Sequence record: MZ502379.1
Length of the DNA stretch: 64,000 bases
Origin: Escherichia phage vB_EcoM_Shinka
Reading direction: 5' to 3' (one strand)
Shown here: positions 17,953 to 25,146 of the stretch, one piece after another
Layout of the letters: every line of letters begins with the position of its first letter
Position numbering within the stretch: the first letter of the stretch is position 1
Program-made: the position numbers and the translations under genes
Notes under the pieces: generated by a model
Told to the model about the DNA's origin: nothing
Database searches by the model: none
What the model saw: only the letters and a program-made list of their open reading frames with translations

Positions 17953-18917
17953 TGTATTCTTTAGAGGAATTTAATAATCAAGCAATAAACGCAGATTTCC
18001 AACGTAATAATATGTTTAGCTGCGTTTTTGCAACAACTCCATCAACTAAAAGCTCTTCGTTGATAAGTTCAATTAGCAACTTTTCTTATAATAACTTGGG
18101 CCTAAATTCAGATTGGTTAGGATTAACTCAAGGTGATATTAATCAGGGAATTACTACGCTAATTACAGCTGGCACACAAAAACTGATAAGAAAATCAGGA
18201 GTCAGTAAATATCTTATTGGTGCCATGAGTCAACGTACAGTTCAAAGTTTATTAGGCTCATTTACAGTTGGTACATATTTAATTGACTTCTTTAACATGG
18301 CATATAACTCATCTGGATTGATGATATACTCTGTAAAAATGCCAGAGAATAGATTATCCTATGAAACTGACTGGAACTATAATTCTCCTAATATTCGTAT
18401 AACTGGGAGAGAATTAGACCCTTTGGTTATTTCATTCAGAATGGATTCAGAAGCTTGTAACTATCGTGCAATGCAAGACTGGGTTAACGCTGTTCAAGAC
18501 CCAGTAACTGGACTGCGTGCTTTGCCACAAGATGTCGAGGCAGACATTCAGGTTAATCTTCATGCTCGTAATGGATTACCTCATACTGCTGTGATGTTCA
18601 CCGGATGCATTCCGGTGTCAGTGAGCGCTCCTGAGTTATCATACGATGGAGATAACCAAATAACTACATTTGATGTTACTTTTGCGTATAGAGTCATGCA
18701 GGCTGGAGCGGTTGATAGACAAGCTGCGCTTGAGTGGCTTGAATCTGCTACTATAAATGGCATTCAAAGCGTTCTCGGAAATAGCGGAGGTGTTACTGGA
18801 CTATCTAATTCGCTTTCACGACTTAGTAGATTAGGAGGAACTGCAGGAAGCATTTCAAACATTAATACTATGACAGGAATTGTCAATTCGCAAAGTAAAA
18901 TATTAGGAGCAATATAA
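17952..18917 (+). CDS. 54: Baseplate tail-tube initiator gp54
   Basis: 321 aa, T4 size and position. Confidence 0.85.
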   Translation: MYSLEEFNNQAINADFQRNNMFSCVFATTPSTKSSSLISSISNFSYNNLGLNSDWLGLTQGDINQGITTLITAGTQKLIRKSGVSKYLIGAMSQRTVQSLLGSFTVGTYLIDFFNMAYNSSGLMIYSVKMPENRLSYETDWNYNSPNIRITGRELDPLVISFRMDSEACNYRAMQDWVNAVQDPVTGLRALPQDVEADIQVNLHARNGLPHTAVMFTGCIPVSVSAPELSYDGDNQITTFDVTFAYRVMQAGAVDRQAALEWLESATINGIQSVLGNSGGVTGLSNSLSRLSRLGGTAGSISNINTMTGIVNSQSKILGAI

Positions 18918-18920
18918 CAA

Positions 18921-18946
18921 TGGGGACCGAAAGGTCCCCATATTTT
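18921..18946. terminator. Bidirectional terminator between gene 54 and the alt block
   Basis: Hairpin ggggaccgaaaggtcccc with T-run. Confidence 0.6.
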
Positions 18947-19236
18947 TATTTACGGAATGAAATAAAAGCAGCAACTGAAGCAACTAAACTGTCTTCAATA
19001 TAAACTTCAATTTTTACCGGAGCTTCTGACTCAAATTTACCTGTTACTACACCTTGGAAAATGCTTTCAGTCTGTTCTGGCTTTGAAAAATTTTCAGAAG
19101 GAAAAATTCCGAACTTTTTATCTGTTCCAAAAATTTTGATAAATTCGTCGTAAACCGCTTCATTAAAAGCGTTATCAGCAGGAATAACGCCTTCAACTAC
19201 AAGTTCTTGACCTAAAAAGCGTAAAGAAGATTTCAT
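18946..19236 (-). CDS. Hypothetical protein (alt.-3-like by position)
   Basis: 96-aa ORF with SD GAGGAA and early promoter directly upstream. Confidence 0.5.
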   Translation of the reverse strand: MKSSLRFLGQELVVEGVIPADNAFNEAVYDEFIKIFGTDKKFGIFPSENFSKPEQTESIFQGVVTGKFESEAPVKIEVYIEDSLVASVAAFISFRK

Positions 19237-19243
19237 TTTGTGT

Positions 19244-19297
19244 TCCTCATGTTATGTCAGTAAGACTACTATAACACAACACGAGGGACTTGTAAAC
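19244..19297 (-). promoter_or_regulatory. T4-type early promoter plus leader/SD; copy 1 of an exact 54-bp repeat
   Basis: Minus strand reads GTTTAC, 18-nt spacer, TATAGT, then leader with GAGGA; identical to 35182..35235. Confidence 0.55.
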
Positions 19298-21354
19298 TAC
19301 ATTTTGAACTTTTTAGACATTCCGTTGATGTTAACCAAAGAAGCTAAGATTTGAGAAACTTCATTTTCCTCTTCTTTTGATTCTTCTACAAGGAATTGAT
19401 TAAATCCAGCCATTGGACGAACTTCACCAGTTTCCATTAGATGGTCTCCATCATATACTGATTCTTCTAATTGTTCAGAAGGAGGAACGATTGTACCTTC
19501 GATTAGATACTTGTTATAAGCAGTTTCTTTCATAAAGTACGTACTTACTTTATTAATCTTCAGTAAAATTCCACGCGGTAGAATAACTTCAGCTTCTGAT
19601 GGAAATCCTGATAAATGACCTGGAACGATAACTTTGATTCGCTCAGCTCCTTTAATTACCATACCCACACTAGTTTCAGCATCTTCATTAGCATATGTAG
19701 AATGACTACCCATATGCATCAAATCTTCTGCATCAACGGAACCTTCTCCTTCACCAGAAAATACTGCTCCGGAATCATCTAGAGCCATATAGTTTTTACC
19801 ATGCTCACCGAAGATATTTGGTTTAAGCGATGTGGATACGAAGTTCTTGAAATAGAACATTTTGTTTTCAATGTTATGACGCAAAGTTTTAAATGTAACT
19901 TCTTGTCCACGGTAAAGTGTAGTTCCTGGAGGAAGAACTGAACCTTTAGCGAATGCAGAATCCAACGTCTCGATGTGCTTAATAGCTCGTTCCATATATT
20001 CTTCACGGGTAGAATCTGGTTTACCCAAAAGGAACGAGTTCATTTCAACATATGAATCTGCACAATAATCTTCAATTACATCAGATTCAGCCTGAGTCAG
20101 TCCTTTTGGAGCTACTTCGGTGCTTGCGTATTCATATGCCTGGGCAGCAGATTCATTAATCAATTTATAAATGCCATTCATGACAAATTGAATAATAGCT
20201 GTCTTTTCATCTGGTGTGGTTTTAGAACCTTTAACTAAATCATTAATAATTTTCTTAATAACATCAAAGCTATTAGAAATATTAATGTCAGCAAGATCGC
20301 TTAAAATTTTATCAGTTTTATAATCAAAGAATTCTTTATTCTTTAAATATTCTTGAGAACCTTGATATGTTATATCGCTCTGCAACTTGATAGATGGATC
20401 ACGTAAACGTGCATGGGCCAATGCAATATGATTTCGGAAGCTTTCTAGTTCATAATCGTTAGATTTAAAACGAGAAGCACTTCTCATACCACCGATAGCT
20501 CCTTTGCTGAAGTTTGAACCAATCTGAATAACGCCAGAGTTCATTGGTCCTTCTGCTTTATATACCGGAACTTTAGATTCAAACTCTTGATATTTCTTAG
20601 CAGCGAAGCTATCACCCTGAAGTGAAGCATCAACAGTAGAATATTGAGCTTGTGCTGCTAATCGACGACTAATTTTAGTTTTCTGAATAACAGCTTGGTC
20701 CGTGCGCTTATCATTTTCTAAAGCAATAGAAGCAGCAACAGCGACAGCTTTAGGAACAGCATTACCTGTTTTAACATCTACATAAACATCACCGACCTTT
20801 GATTCAACTTTTGTGAATAACTCAGTTGAAATAGGAGGTACACCTGGAATGTCTTCTAAATTGGCATTTTTACGGTAAACCATAATATATGCGTACTTTT
20901 TATCATAGTCCCAGATTTCCTTTAAAAGAACATATCGACCTGCTCCTTTAGTACGTACTAAACGGTCAGCAATAACTTGCATTTGACGAGCTGCGCCATT
21001 TGTTTTACTCTTTAGTACGCGGAATAGGCATGCGTCGATTTTATACTGCTTCATTGTTTGAAGAGCAGTATCAAAAACAGCATTAATGACGCCAATTGGA
21101 TTTCCACCCAAGTTTCTAAGCTTAACCAGCGATAATTTCTCGTTGACACCTATCATTACGATATGCATCATTTTATCGCCTGGCTTAACGTTTTTATTTG
21201 TATCACCACCAGAGGTGTATGTACAAAATCTAAATCCAGGAAGCACGCTTTCTTCGCCGGCTTGGATAGCAAAAATTTGTGGTATTTTATGCTTAGGATT
21301 TAAGTTAACAACCGGCGCCGAAGCGCCGTCAAATAATTCTGTAATAAGTTCCAT
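19297..21354 (-). CDS. Alt-like NAD-protein ADP-ribosyltransferase, paralog 2 (685 aa)
   Basis: C-terminal R-S-E ART motifs (LYRG, FVSTSL, EAEV); N-terminus MELITELFD shared with the neighbouring paralog. Confidence 0.8.
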   Translation of the reverse strand: MELITELFDGASAPVVNLNPKHKIPQIFAIQAGEESVLPGFRFCTYTSGGDTNKNVKPGDKMMHIVMIGVNEKLSLVKLRNLGGNPIGVINAVFDTALQTMKQYKIDACLFRVLKSKTNGAARQMQVIADRLVRTKGAGRYVLLKEIWDYDKKYAYIMVYRKNANLEDIPGVPPISTELFTKVESKVGDVYVDVKTGNAVPKAVAVAASIALENDKRTDQAVIQKTKISRRLAAQAQYSTVDASLQGDSFAAKKYQEFESKVPVYKAEGPMNSGVIQIGSNFSKGAIGGMRSASRFKSNDYELESFRNHIALAHARLRDPSIKLQSDITYQGSQEYLKNKEFFDYKTDKILSDLADINISNSFDVIKKIINDLVKGSKTTPDEKTAIIQFVMNGIYKLINESAAQAYEYASTEVAPKGLTQAESDVIEDYCADSYVEMNSFLLGKPDSTREEYMERAIKHIETLDSAFAKGSVLPPGTTLYRGQEVTFKTLRHNIENKMFYFKNFVSTSLKPNIFGEHGKNYMALDDSGAVFSGEGEGSVDAEDLMHMGSHSTYANEDAETSVGMVIKGAERIKVIVPGHLSGFPSEAEVILPRGILLKINKVSTYFMKETAYNKYLIEGTIVPPSEQLEESVYDGDHLMETGEVRPMAGFNQFLVEESKEEENEVSQILASLVNINGMSKKFKM

Positions 21355-21357
21355 GAT

Positions 21358-23445
21358 TTATCCTTGAACGAACTTGTAAGGCATGTTTGTAATATCTATG
21401 CAAGACGCAATAATTCCAAGAGATGATTCTGCTTTCTGTTTAACATTTGATGAAACAAATGATGCAAAGTCAACTCTGTCTTCTATTTCACCTGTCATTG
21501 CAACTACTTCGCCGGTTTCCATTAAACGGTCACCGTCATAAATTACCGATTCGGTGAGTTCTTCGGTGGTCATAACTTCAGCTTGAATGAGTTTTGTATT
21601 GTTAGATGTTGTTCCGTCATTATTAGAAGCATCAGTTATTTTATTAACTTTGACCATCAATCCGCGCGGTAGAATAACTTCAGCTTCTGTTGCTATTCCG
21701 AGACTTCCTGGATATACAACATTAACTTTATGTGCGCCGTCAATTGCCCATCCTATTTGAACTTTAACGTATTCAGGATTTTCTTTATACGCTCTTATTT
21801 CGTTTGGATTAATAGTTATTCCTTCTTCATTTTTATCAACTGTTAATTCATTGCGAGCTTCTGGTTCTAAAAGACCAATACCAGCATGTGTAATTCCAAA
21901 ACGTCCAAAAATGATAGGAGTTAAAGAAGTAGATACAAAATTTCTGAAATAGAACACTTTATTTTTAACTAGCGCTTCATATATAGGAGCAGTCATACTT
22001 TGAGCACGATAAACTGTAATGCCTTCCGGTATACGGTCACCATTTTCAAAAGCTGAATCTAAATTATTTATAGCAGATTCAATTTCTTTTTCACTCATTG
22101 CATCATATCGTTCTGGATTGTAACGACCTAAAAGAAGATTATTAATGTCTGTATATCCTGAGCCACAATATTCTCTAATGCCGCGCTTTTGTGATGGAGT
22201 ATATTTAGAACCATCACGGGCAATAGTAATATCAATCATTGGACCAGCACCAATTCCAGAAAAACTATAAATCATTCGTTTGAGGAATTTAGTTTTTGCT
22301 GCATTCCAGGCATTTTTAGTTATTTCTCCCCAGACTTCATCTGGCTGCCCTTTACGAGTTTTATTATGTTTATCAAGCCAATTATCTTTATATTCTTCAA
22401 AGAATTTATTAATAGCTGCTGCGTATTTCTCTAAACATTTTATTGAAGTAGTTGGTTCATTTTTTATCGCGTTAAAAATTACATCTTTAATTTTTTCTGA
22501 AACTTCATCAACCTCACTTTTTGAAAAGAATTTATAGTCATAGTGAAGTTCATTCGCAGTTCCTTCGGCAATAATTTTTGCTGCCTTAATTTTAGAAGCT
22601 AATGAATTAATTCCAAGCTTCATTTCTTCTGCTTCGGGAATTAAAGGAGCGGTAGCAGGTTTATTGAAATTAGCTGCGGTAGATTCATACTTATGGAATA
22701 ATTCACTTTCAAATCTAGAAGATTCTAATGATTGACTTTGTGCAATTGCTCTACGGGAAATTTTAACTTTAACGATTACAGCTTGGTCAGAACGTTTATC
22801 ATTTTCTTGCGCAATAGATGCAGCAATTGCCTCATTTTTAGTTACTTGAGCTCCAGTATCTTTATTGATATAAACATCACCGACCTTCGATTCAACTTTA
22901 GTAAAGAGCTCGGTACTAATTTCCGGAACTCCTGGAATGTCTTCTAGTGATACATTTTTGCGATGTATAAGAATATATGCATACTTTTTATCGTAATCCC
23001 AGAGTTCCTTAAGAAGGACGTATCTGCCACCTGAACGACTACGGATAAGTCTATCAGCAATAACTTGAATTTGTCGAGCTTGGCCAGCAGTTTTAGACTT
23101 AAGAATACGAAGCATACAAGCATCAATTTTATATTGACGCATAGTTTGCATTGCAACAGTAAAAACTGAATTGATATAATTAATTGGGCTTGGACCAAGA
23201 CCTTTTAATTTAGCAATTGAACCTTTAGCAGTTAATGTAAAAGGAACAATATGCATCATTTTATCGCCCATTTTTAAATCGCGATTAGTATCACCTCCAG
23301 ATGTATAGGTACATAAACGAAAGCCTGGTTGTTCAATTGCGTCATCAACATGAACTGAAAAAATTTGTGGTATTTTCTTCTTTGGATTTAAGTTTGTAAT
23401 CGGAAGAGTAGTATCTTCGTCAAATAATTCTGTAATAAGTTCCAT
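21358..23445 (-). CDS. alt: Alt-like NAD-protein ADP-ribosyltransferase, paralog 1 (695 aa from second Met)
   Basis: R-S-E motifs (VYRAQ, FVSTSL, EAEV); N-terminal MELITELFDE; late promoter upstream. Confidence 0.8.
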   Translation of the reverse strand: MELITELFDEDTTLPITNLNPKKKIPQIFSVHVDDAIEQPGFRLCTYTSGGDTNRDLKMGDKMMHIVPFTLTAKGSIAKLKGLGPSPINYINSVFTVAMQTMRQYKIDACMLRILKSKTAGQARQIQVIADRLIRSRSGGRYVLLKELWDYDKKYAYILIHRKNVSLEDIPGVPEISTELFTKVESKVGDVYINKDTGAQVTKNEAIAASIAQENDKRSDQAVIVKVKISRRAIAQSQSLESSRFESELFHKYESTAANFNKPATAPLIPEAEEMKLGINSLASKIKAAKIIAEGTANELHYDYKFFSKSEVDEVSEKIKDVIFNAIKNEPTTSIKCLEKYAAAINKFFEEYKDNWLDKHNKTRKGQPDEVWGEITKNAWNAAKTKFLKRMIYSFSGIGAGPMIDITIARDGSKYTPSQKRGIREYCGSGYTDINNLLLGRYNPERYDAMSEKEIESAINNLDSAFENGDRIPEGITVYRAQSMTAPIYEALVKNKVFYFRNFVSTSLTPIIFGRFGITHAGIGLLEPEARNELTVDKNEEGITINPNEIRAYKENPEYVKVQIGWAIDGAHKVNVVYPGSLGIATEAEVILPRGLMVKVNKITDASNNDGTTSNNTKLIQAEVMTTEELTESVIYDGDRLMETGEVVAMTGEIEDRVDFASFVSSNVKQKAESSLGIIASCIDITNMPYKFVQG

Positions 23446-23468
23446 CATAGCCTCTCTAGTGTTTATTC

Positions 23469-23476
23469 TATTTATA
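23469..23476 (-). promoter_or_regulatory. Late promoter (TATAAATA on minus strand) for the alt paralog pair
   Basis: Minus-strand TATAAATA about 21 nt upstream of the alt start; preceded by hairpin aaaggcccgaaggccttt. Confidence 0.5.
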
Positions 23477-23497
23477 AAATTAAAGGCCCGAAGGCCT

Positions 23498-23686
23498 TTA
23501 ATAATCTATTGGTAAGAGAGTACGATATATTTCAAACTTTGGACCTTTTTCATAGGCATCAAATGTTTCTGTAAATTTATTATAAGCATATGCATCTACA
23601 AATTCGAGAATGACTTGTGATACAGAAGTAGAAACATCTCCACCTTCTTTTTGAGCAATGACAATTGTTTCTAAGTAAGCTTTCAT
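23498..23686 (-). CDS. Hypothetical protein
   Basis: 62-aa ORF overlapping ligase stop by 4 nt. Confidence 0.4.
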   Translation of the reverse strand: MKAYLETIVIAQKEGGDVSTSVSQVILEFVDAYAYNKFTETFDAYEKGPKFEIYRTLLPIDY

Positions 23687-25146
23687 AGACCAGTTACCTC
23701 ATGAAAATCACCAAATACATCCTCGAACGTATTAGCTTTAGTTTTATCTTCACGTAAACGAATCGCAATCGGAAGAAATAATTTAACGTAATCAGTGCGA
23801 CCATCAGATTTTAACCAACCGTTGCATTCGCACTCTAGAATTTTTCCAATATAATAATTTTGATTTTCCATAATGCGAGTACGATCAAGTTCATGCGATT
23901 TTACACCGGCTTTATCTTTTAAGCCTGAACCAGCATTTACTTTAATTTTTCCACACTCTGATTCAAGAACGAAACCACCTGCTTTAGTAGGGTCTTTACG
24001 GTGAGGATAAATTCCTACAATTTTTAAATCAACATCAATTACTTCTTTGAATTTATAGAGATTTTTTGAACGAGCATTTTCCCATAATCCATCGATATTT
24101 TTGAGAATAATACCTTCAAGACCTTGGTCAATATACTTTTTGTAAATTACCTTAGCTTCATCTATGTTATTTACTAATTGGTTTTCAATTAAAATTACTT
24201 TATCATAGCCTGATGTCATTTGTTCTAGTTTAGAAAAACGTACATCATATTTTAAACGAAATGCTGGAAGACCATATATTTCTACTAATGGAACATAGTC
24301 CCAGACCTGAAACTTCATGCATTGTGCTTCTTTTTCAGAAATGGTTCCCTTTAAAGATTTATTGGCGATGCCATTAGATGCAGTACGTGATTCAGCTACT
24401 TCGGCGAATTCTTTAGCTTTACTAATTTCAGGATAAGCATCAAAAAGAAAATCTAGGCCTTCTGGTTCCTTTTCAACTTGCTCATGGTATACCAATTCGC
24501 CATCAATTAACACACCTTCTGGATGAATCTGGCGGGCTTCAGCGGTCATTTTGATTAACTCTTCCTTAAGAAGATCTAATCCTAGATATTCATTACCAGC
24601 TCGTGATAAAAGACGGACATCATCTAATTCATCACCTCTAACTTCAGCAAAACACCGAGCTCCATCTGCTTTTAATTGTGCAAAGGCTGGAAATTTGATA
24701 TTCTTACTAATGCCTTTTTCATCATAAGAACTTGCGAGCATTTGAGGTTGTTCAGGAATTAAACCTGGCCAAACTTTGTTTGCAATAGATACTGAAGCAC
24801 CACATTCAAGGTCTCGCATCATCACTCGACGCAAAACTTCAACATCATCTTTTTTACCATCGGTGATGTATCCAGTTAATTCCTCAATCGCCGCATTTCC
24901 AGTCAATTTCCGAGTAGCTAACGTGAATTCAATGAAGTCAAGCATATCGGTAAGAGTCAACATTCCAAAACTCTGGGTAGCAATACCAGGTTTAGGCCAT
25001 TTCTTGATATAATACTGTAACCCACGAGAATAAGTCAGACGATATACTCGTTTAAGCAATTCATTATCTTTATTCTTTTCAAGAATTGCTTGCTTCTGCT
25101 TAGTTGAACCAATAGATGCTATTTCGTTCAGAATTTTAAGAATCAT
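23683..25146 (-). CDS. 30: ATP-dependent DNA ligase gp30
   Basis: 487 aa, recognised T4 ligase sequence; adenylation motif LKADGAR. Confidence 0.95.
   Translation of the reverse strand: MILKILNEIASIGSTKQKQAILEKNKDNELLKRVYRLTYSRGLQYYIKKWPKPGIATQSFGMLTLTDMLDFIEFTLATRKLTGNAAIEELTGYITDGKKDDVEVLRRVMMRDLECGASVSIANKVWPGLIPEQPQMLASSYDEKGISKNIKFPAFAQLKADGARCFAEVRGDELDDVRLLSRAGNEYLGLDLLKEELIKMTAEARQIHPEGVLIDGELVYHEQVEKEPEGLDFLFDAYPEISKAKEFAEVAESRTASNGIANKSLKGTISEKEAQCMKFQVWDYVPLVEIYGLPAFRLKYDVRFSKLEQMTSGYDKVILIENQLVNNIDEAKVIYKKYIDQGLEGIILKNIDGLWENARSKNLYKFKEVIDVDLKIVGIYPHRKDPTKAGGFVLESECGKIKVNAGSGLKDKAGVKSHELDRTRIMENQNYYIGKILECECNGWLKSDGRTDYVKLFLPIAIRLREDKTKANTFEDVFGDFHEVTGL

Follow-up and report, generated by a model that had tools for sequence, protein, structure and literature searches.

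In T4, Alt is an enzyme that modifies host proteins; it resides in the prohead core at about 40 copies per head and is injected with the DNA (PMC9026906), and the prohead protease gp21 cuts it after ITE-6 and LTE-619, with removal of a 63-residue C-terminal propeptide (PMC5694885). The T4 gene has been established experimentally as a late gene (PMC9697503), and a 2006 paper described paralogous duplications of alt, among them a full-length copy in Aeromonas phage 44RR (PMC1524935). At the T4 locus, alt (682 amino acids [aa]) is followed by the short open reading frames (ORFs) alt.-1 (61 aa) and alt.-2 (67 aa). The present analysis concerns the alt locus of Escherichia phage vB_EcoM_Shinka (sequence record MZ502379.1), of which a stretch of 64,000 nucleotides (nt), hereafter the window, was examined. 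The window comes from a T2/RB32-like Tequatrovirus, and its alt locus holds a tandem pair of intact Alt-family genes, the second of which corresponds, on alignment, to the full-length form of the gene that T4 retains as alt.-1 and alt.-2.

The pair consists of two minus-strand ORFs, 21358..23448 (upstream) and 19297..21354 (downstream), separated by 3 nt in the ORF list. Their products are 41% identical over the full length (BLASTP, E 5e-164). In a three-way alignment with T4 Alt, the two proteins share 56-75% identity over residues 1-240, approximately 20% over residues 241-440, and 33-49% in the ADP-ribosyltransferase (ART) domain and tail (33-45% in the ART domain), consistent with the common N-terminus MELITELFD, conserved N-terminal third, and diverged middle that an earlier model-made reading of the sequence alone (the sequence-only reading) had described. 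A megablast search with 18900..23750 matched 543 phage records, 341 of which cover the region; the best matches were RB32, RB33, T2, and their relatives, with about 97.7% nucleotide identity and an unchanged gene order. In the RB32 RefSeq record, the genes follow one another in the direction of transcription as 30 (DNA ligase), alt.1, alt (697 aa), alt.-2 (685 aa), and alt.-3, with gene 54 next on the opposite strand; the record remarks on alt.-2 "apparent insertion in alt.-2; similar to alt." Both large genes are labeled "Alt-like RNA polymerase ADP-ribosyltransferase" in T2, RB32, and hundreds of relatives. Thus, of the prospect that both genes might already be annotated with known roles, the annotation was found, whereas a role is known only for Alt.

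By profile and motif, each gene encodes an Alt-family mono-ADP-ribosyltransferase of the arginine type (R / S-T-S / E-x-E). The PHROG 802 profile covers residues 1-695 of 696 in the upstream protein (3.4e-273) and 1-685 of 685 in the downstream protein (9e-256), and Pfam PF03496 (ADPrib_exo_Tox) matches both (1.4e-37 and 4.4e-20, respectively). The motifs YRA/YRG, FVSTSL, and EAEVILPRG named in the sequence-only reading were found in both proteins, and no loss of catalytic residues, a possibility it had raised, was seen on alignment: R, S-T-S, and E-x-E are retained at R480, STS 505-507, and EAE 587-589 in the upstream protein (695-aa numbering) and at R482, STS 507-509, and EAE 587-589 in the downstream protein. 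An exhaustive search of 1.84 billion representative proteins delimited a compact Alt family of 112 clusters, 57 with E <1e-30, mostly 600-710 aa long. When 57 diverse members were aligned, the catalytic Arg (R482 in the downstream protein), S507 (the first Ser of S-T-S), E587, and E589 were invariant, as were M1, Y430, D465, and the P-R-G following E-x-E. The layout of N-domain, ART domain, and tail was present in 52 of 110 family representatives. All full-length homologs additionally carry, beside PF03496, the precomputed Pfam label PF26846, which presumably denotes an Alt-specific region. One distant relative of 1,718 aa (P0213) holds five to six ART domains in tandem in one polypeptide.

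Structural modeling agreed with this assignment. The AlphaFold2 model of the downstream protein (predicted local distance difference test [pLDDT] 81.6; predicted template modeling score [pTM] 0.75) contains a C-terminal ART domain, and a Foldseek search with this domain matched Vis, Certhrax, C3, CDTa, and VIP2 at template modeling (TM) scores on the target of about 0.6. Sequence matches in the PDB align the catalytic Arg and E-x-E. Neither the PDB sequence search nor the fold search returned a solved Alt structure, the latter giving generic ARTs only. Together with the coordinates, PF03496, PHROG 802, and the catalytic residues, the ART fold of the downstream protein bears out the claim of tandem Alt-like paralogs.

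The upstream gene occupies the position of T4 alt, between alt.1 and the alt.-1/-2/-3 group, and is a T2/RB32-type alt allele. Its protein is 97-99% identical to the annotated Alt of Sf22, Shfl2, and others, but only 69% identical overall to T4 Alt (NP_049811, 682 aa). This divergence is unevenly distributed. Nonsynonymous and synonymous divergence (dN and dS) were estimated region by region by the Nei-Gojobori method; between the window and T4 genes, the N-domain (aa 1-238; 22732..23445, minus strand) has dS 0.10 and dN 0.002 and is approximately 100% identical, and the C-terminal tail has dS 0.23 with an 88-95% identical C-propeptide, whereas dS reaches 1.33 in the middle region (11-36% amino acid identity) and 1.41 in the ART domain (50-74%). 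Because the core is saturated (dS 1.3-1.4) against 0.10 in the N-domain, the upstream gene is best described, on this comparison, as the positional ortholog of T4 alt with a replaced core. The alt alleles thus appear to be mosaic, with an effector core exchanged between lineages within a constant frame. A tblastn search with the upstream protein placed 289 records at 95-99% identity and a further 211 at 60-80%; the T4-type alleles sampled, at about 70%, belong to the latter band.

The ORF of the upstream gene opens with ATGATG (23443..23448, minus strand), and the choice of start differs among records: 697 aa in RB32, 696 aa from the first ATG in the window (MMELITELFDE...), and the second ATG by the T4 convention. 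The true start is probably 23445, giving 695 aa, because the spacing of 5 nt from the Shine-Dalgarno sequence GAGAGG (23451..23456, minus strand; 2 nt from the ATG at 23448), the T4 annotation, and the experimentally numbered ITE-6 site agree.

The downstream gene encodes 685 aa (MELITELFDG...) and is named alt.-2 in RB32, whose product (YP_803136) is 99.1% identical to it. Its Shine-Dalgarno sequence AAGGA (21361..21365, minus strand) lies within the last alt codons, followed by the alt TAA, 3 nt, and the ATG. The protein comprises a family-specific N-terminal alpha/beta domain (aa 1-240; 20635..21354), for which we propose a role in head-core targeting or delivery; a hypervariable, all-helical middle without a Pfam match (aa 241-420; 20095..20634); and the ART catalytic domain identified by PF03496 and Foldseek (aa 421-620; 19495..20094), which contains, at about aa 518-560, a variable insert modeled with low confidence, all on the minus strand.

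The alignment to T4 Alt and to alt.-1/alt.-2 that the sequence-only reading had proposed identified the upstream gene as alt and the downstream gene as the full-length form of alt.-1/alt.-2; whether T4 has an intact second copy, which that reading had been unable to say, was answered in the negative, only the alt.-1 and alt.-2 remnants being present. T4 alt.-1 (NP_049810) matches aa 1-56 of the downstream protein at 95% identity and alt.-2 (NP_049809) matches aa 62-116 at 96%, whereas identity to the upstream protein is only 58-62%, and the nucleotide identity of the remnant to the downstream gene is about 95% over approximately the first 350 nt of the gene. Two DNA changes separate T4 from the window: a 1-nt deletion in an A-run near 21178, which splits alt.-1 from alt.-2, and a larger deletion, of about 1.69 kb, that begins and ends inside a 9-bp imperfect direct repeat, with the left copy CTAAAGAGT at 21007..21015 and the right copy CTAAAAAGT at 19308..19316 (both minus strand), the latter 11 nt before the end of the 685-aa ORF. 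The T4 fragments are thus the remains of a full-length paralog rather than a partial duplication, in contrast to the T4 GenBank note, which describes them as "a duplication of the first part of gene alt." By sequence comparison, the downstream gene is therefore the ortholog of RB32 alt.-2 and the intact form of T4 alt.-1 plus alt.-2. The part of the gene that T4 lacks is present at ≥90% nucleotide identity in 401 phage records, and the T4 deletion junction was found in 91 records, many of them T4 laboratory isolates. A tblastn search with the downstream protein returned records at either ≥90% or <60% identity, plus one at 80-90%.

The duplication that gave rise to the pair is old, as dS between the paralogs is saturated in every region (1.1-1.6). 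Their N-domains show dN 0.29 and dS 1.44, a dN/dS of about 0.2. Gene conversion had been considered as the source of the common N-terminal third and was ruled out, as dS is saturated there too (1.44); the conservation of this third consequently reflects purifying selection. Both genes are intact and under strong purifying selection (dN/dS about 0.05), with dN/dS against the RB32 orthologs of 0.058 for alt and 0.044 for the downstream gene.

Both proteins carry the motifs at which gp21 processes T4 Alt, namely ITE at residues 4-6 and an L-x-E immediately before SV(I)YDGD (LTE 630-632 upstream; LEE 629-631 downstream). The predicted downstream motif (19462..19470, minus strand) aligns with LTE-619 of T4 Alt. 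Across the family, the N- and C-terminal motifs keep the contexts (L/I)-x-E|(L/V)F and (L/I)-x-E|S(V/I)Y, respectively, with the P1 Glu present at both in ≥90% of the 57 aligned members. In the AlphaFold2 model of the downstream protein, residues 630-659, around the C-terminal site, are disordered. Cleavage at these positions is predicted to yield mature products of residues 7-632 (70.1 kDa) from alt and 7-631 (69.2 kDa) from the downstream gene, the latter losing a 54-aa acidic C-propeptide. From these motifs and the conserved N-terminal domain, we infer that both paralogs may be packaged and injected.

The N-domain (aa 1-240) and the helical middle gave no significant Pfam or NCBIfam match. 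Modeled alone (20629..21354), the N-domain was predicted with a pLDDT of 87 and a pTM of 0.84, and its best Foldseek matches in BFVD, a collection of predicted viral structures, were Alt homologs. Weaker matches (E 1e-7 to 1e-4; TM 0.4-0.55) were large uncharacterized proteins from unrelated phages of Erwinia, Dickeya, Vibrio, and Agrobacterium, and some of these proteins carry Zeta-toxin, (cytidine) deaminase, or ParB/Srx domain annotations. At the sequence level, the N-domain was almost always joined to an ART domain among the 110 representatives; a single protein of 541 aa (P0217) had no detectable ART, and two others (P0200 and P0229) had degenerate ART matches.

The upstream region of the pair is identical to that of T4 alt in its two principal elements. 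As the sequence-only reading had pointed out, a late-type box and a hairpin lie just 5′ of the first gene: a putative late-promoter box of the T4 type, TATAAATA, at 23476..23469 (minus strand), 23 nt 5′ of the probable start codon at 23445, and a hairpin with a 10-bp stem, a UUCG loop, and a following U-run (23479..23502, minus strand; minimum free energy, -14.5 kcal/mol; z, -1.98), which overlaps the alt.1 stop codon. The hairpin probably terminates the early transcript of gene 30 and alt.1, and a conserved terminator 5′ of alt has been reported (PMC1524935); it was absent from the list produced by a simple terminator scan. The same scan found no terminator-like site on the minus strand between the two genes, and a single late transcription unit for both would be the simplest reading.

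Collectively, the locus comprises two intact Alt-family genes, and we consider it probable that these are transcribed together late and that their products are packaged, trimmed by gp21, injected, and directed at different host targets. Both genes would be transcribed late as one unit from TATAAATA at 23476..23469, and the second gene, which starts 3 nt past the first stop, would be translated from its own Shine-Dalgarno sequence. The precursors (about 76-78 kDa) would enter the prohead core, probably via the 240-aa N-domain and/or the terminal propeptides, where gp21 would trim both after Glu-6 and after the L-x-E preceding SV(I)YDGD to approximately 69-70 kDa. Both mature proteins would then be ejected along with the DNA, and in the new host each would ADP-ribosylate arginines using NAD+. 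The two enzymes most likely modify different sets of host proteins, because the helical middle, the ART-domain insert, and the residues before E-x-E differ almost completely. The upstream enzyme would be responsible for the "alteration" of RNA polymerase alpha, which T4 Alt modifies at Arg265, or would be an allelic variant of the enzyme that is, and the downstream enzyme may be an accessory effector, dispensable to T4.

Several points weigh against this account. The octamer TATAAATA is not enriched in the window (14 found versus 9.0 ± 3.1 expected), and its weight as a promoter here comes from its position and from the identity with the region upstream of T4 alt. A second TATAAATA lies inside alt at 22072..22065 (minus strand), approximately 710 nt before the start of the downstream gene; this copy and the unenriched octamer weaken the case for a single promoter. 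The internal copy could serve as an internal late promoter. As a dedicated promoter of the second gene it was judged to be probably a chance match, given its location within coding sequence (...AINN...) and the different T4 sequence at that point. The literature search gave no direct evidence of the downstream protein being in virions, cleaved, injected, or active: in open-access papers, the second copy has annotation-level mentions only, a 2025 study of injected T-even proteins (PMC12373910) treats the internal proteins Ip1-3 and not Alt, and the word Alt is absent from a 2026 Klebsiella phage proteomics paper. That the N-domain acts in packaging is assumed; the experimentally defined capsid-targeting sequences of T4 are short propeptides of internal proteins, and no experiment on Alt targeting was found. 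Different targets are suggested by sequence divergence only. Finally, T4 grows well without the second gene, whose function is dispensable on laboratory hosts.

This dispensability is also what would be expected if the second copy were a redundant duplicate that performs the same ADP-ribosylation of RNA polymerase alpha and merely raises the injected dose. The two proteins share their catalytic motifs, N-domain, and cleavage motifs and presumably belong to the same operon, all of which would suit such a role. We nevertheless regard redundancy as unlikely, as the duplication is old (dS 1.1-1.6 everywhere), the middle regions are not alignable (about 20%), and the segment before E-x-E and the ART-domain insert also differ; moreover, the near-invariance of the second protein, kept at ≥95% identity in about 400 genomes with a dN/dS of 0.044, fits a distinct selected function better. 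The same conservation bears on the idea of the second copy as a pseudogene in decay. A frameshifted, truncated remnant is indeed all that T4 and 90 other records carry, but the window contains an uninterrupted 685-codon ORF with all catalytic residues, and the gene is intact in about 400 records; decay is hardly credible as a general account, and for the window itself it was excluded by the intact ORF, the 401 records, and the low dN/dS.

A different objection concerns delivery. The downstream protein might remain unpackaged and act late in the producing cell, for example on host or phage proteins during assembly, with only the upstream Alt being injected. The literature search found no virion proteomics that covers the second copy, and L/I-x-E motifs, as short tripeptides, also turn up at other positions in both proteins. 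Set against this are the family-wide conservation of both cleavage contexts, including the P1 Glu; the maintenance of the 240-aa N-domain between the paralogs at a dN/dS of about 0.2; and the disorder of the model exactly at the C-terminal site, as expected for a protease-accessible linker. On balance, we find a purely intracellular role of the downstream protein improbable and favor packaging and injection of both enzymes.

A broader and more tentative proposal, which we consider possible yet doubtful, is that the alt locus is a modular cassette for injected effectors, in which a conserved head-delivery frame formed by the 240-aa N-domain and the cleavable C-propeptide surrounds a recombining, hypervariable core. 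Under such an arrangement, Tequatroviruses may hold at least three effector types (the T4-type Alt, T2-type Alt, and Alt.-2 cores), with most phages injecting two, and the helical region of the core may contribute target recognition alongside the ART domain. In this scheme, the second effector would act on a host target distinct from that of the first, perhaps a component of a defense or toxin-antitoxin system by analogy with T4 Alt, which the title of one publication calls a negative regulator of the MazF toxin. Its deletion from T4, the model phage, would explain why this effector escaped attention. In unrelated phages, enzymes of other types may also be delivered by means of the N-domain fold; we treat this general idea as a lead only, since it derives from the weak BFVD fold matches.

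On the 3′ side of the two genes, alt.-3 (18946..19236, minus strand; DUF5498; 96 aa) lies outside the paralog pair and is 100% identical to T4 Alt.-3, C-terminal extension mutations of which allow escape from the CmdTAC defense (bioRxiv 10.1101/2024.02.24.581662). An early-type sigma-70 promoter-like site (GTTTACA, 17 nt, TATAGT; 19268..19296, minus strand), a consensus match only (10/12, with a TG extension), sits directly 3′ of the downstream paralog stop and 5′ of alt.-3 and is kept in T4 across the deletion junction. This suggests that alt.-3 may also have its own promoter, besides any read-through from the late alt unit. Between the converging alt.-3 and 54, a perfect 9-bp stem with six G-C pairs and T-runs on both sides (18920..18941) looks like a bidirectional terminator. 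On the 5′ side, alt.1 (23498..23686, minus strand; 62 aa), whose stop codon falls in the hairpin stem, has matches to Pfam PF24647 "Phage blade protein" (2e-29) and to PHROG 1976, a family of unknown function.

The gene pair as such is already known: T2, RB32, and about 400 further genomes have it annotated, and the T4 remnant has long been noted. Our analysis adds the deletion origin of T4 alt.-1/alt.-2 and the strong purifying selection on the second copy, together with, as read from the alignments, the apparent retention of both gp21 sites in the two paralogs and in the wider family and the probable mosaic nature of alt alleles, in which the frame is constant and the core variable. T4 is accordingly the atypical case: about four-fifths of the sequenced relatives with this region carry a second, strongly conserved, and apparently packageable ADP-ribosyltransferase, and the literature search found no study of the function or targets of this second enzyme. 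If the two enzymes hit different host proteins, the takeover of the cell by T-even phages in the first seconds of infection would be broader than the T4-based picture. In that case, the conserved-frame, variable-core layout of alt would constitute another arena of the phage-host arms race, beside the internal proteins that block GmrSD-type restriction enzymes.

Comparison with described ADP-ribosyltransferases places the pair as follows. T4 Alt and the upstream gene are alike in position, hairpin, TATAAATA, the N-terminal 238 aa, the C-propeptide, the R/STS/ExE residues, and the ITE-6 and LTE motifs; the two are nonetheless distinct alleles, the upstream gene being of the T2 type and carrying an exchanged effector core. 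ModA and ModB are proteins of about 200 aa produced early after infection. They are R-S-E ARTs from the same phage group and have been placed together with Alt in the Alt/VIP2 clade, but in T4, unlike Alt, they are not injected from the head (PMC5512222). Outside this phage group, the PF03496 proteins C3bot, Vis, Certhrax, VIP2, iota Ia, and CDTa have in common with the pair the ART fold, the R-S-E triad, and the E-x-E ARTT motif of arginine-specific enzymes. In VIP2, iota Ia, and CDTa, the N-terminal adaptor is itself a degenerate ART fold, whereas the Alt N-domain is not a degenerate ART.

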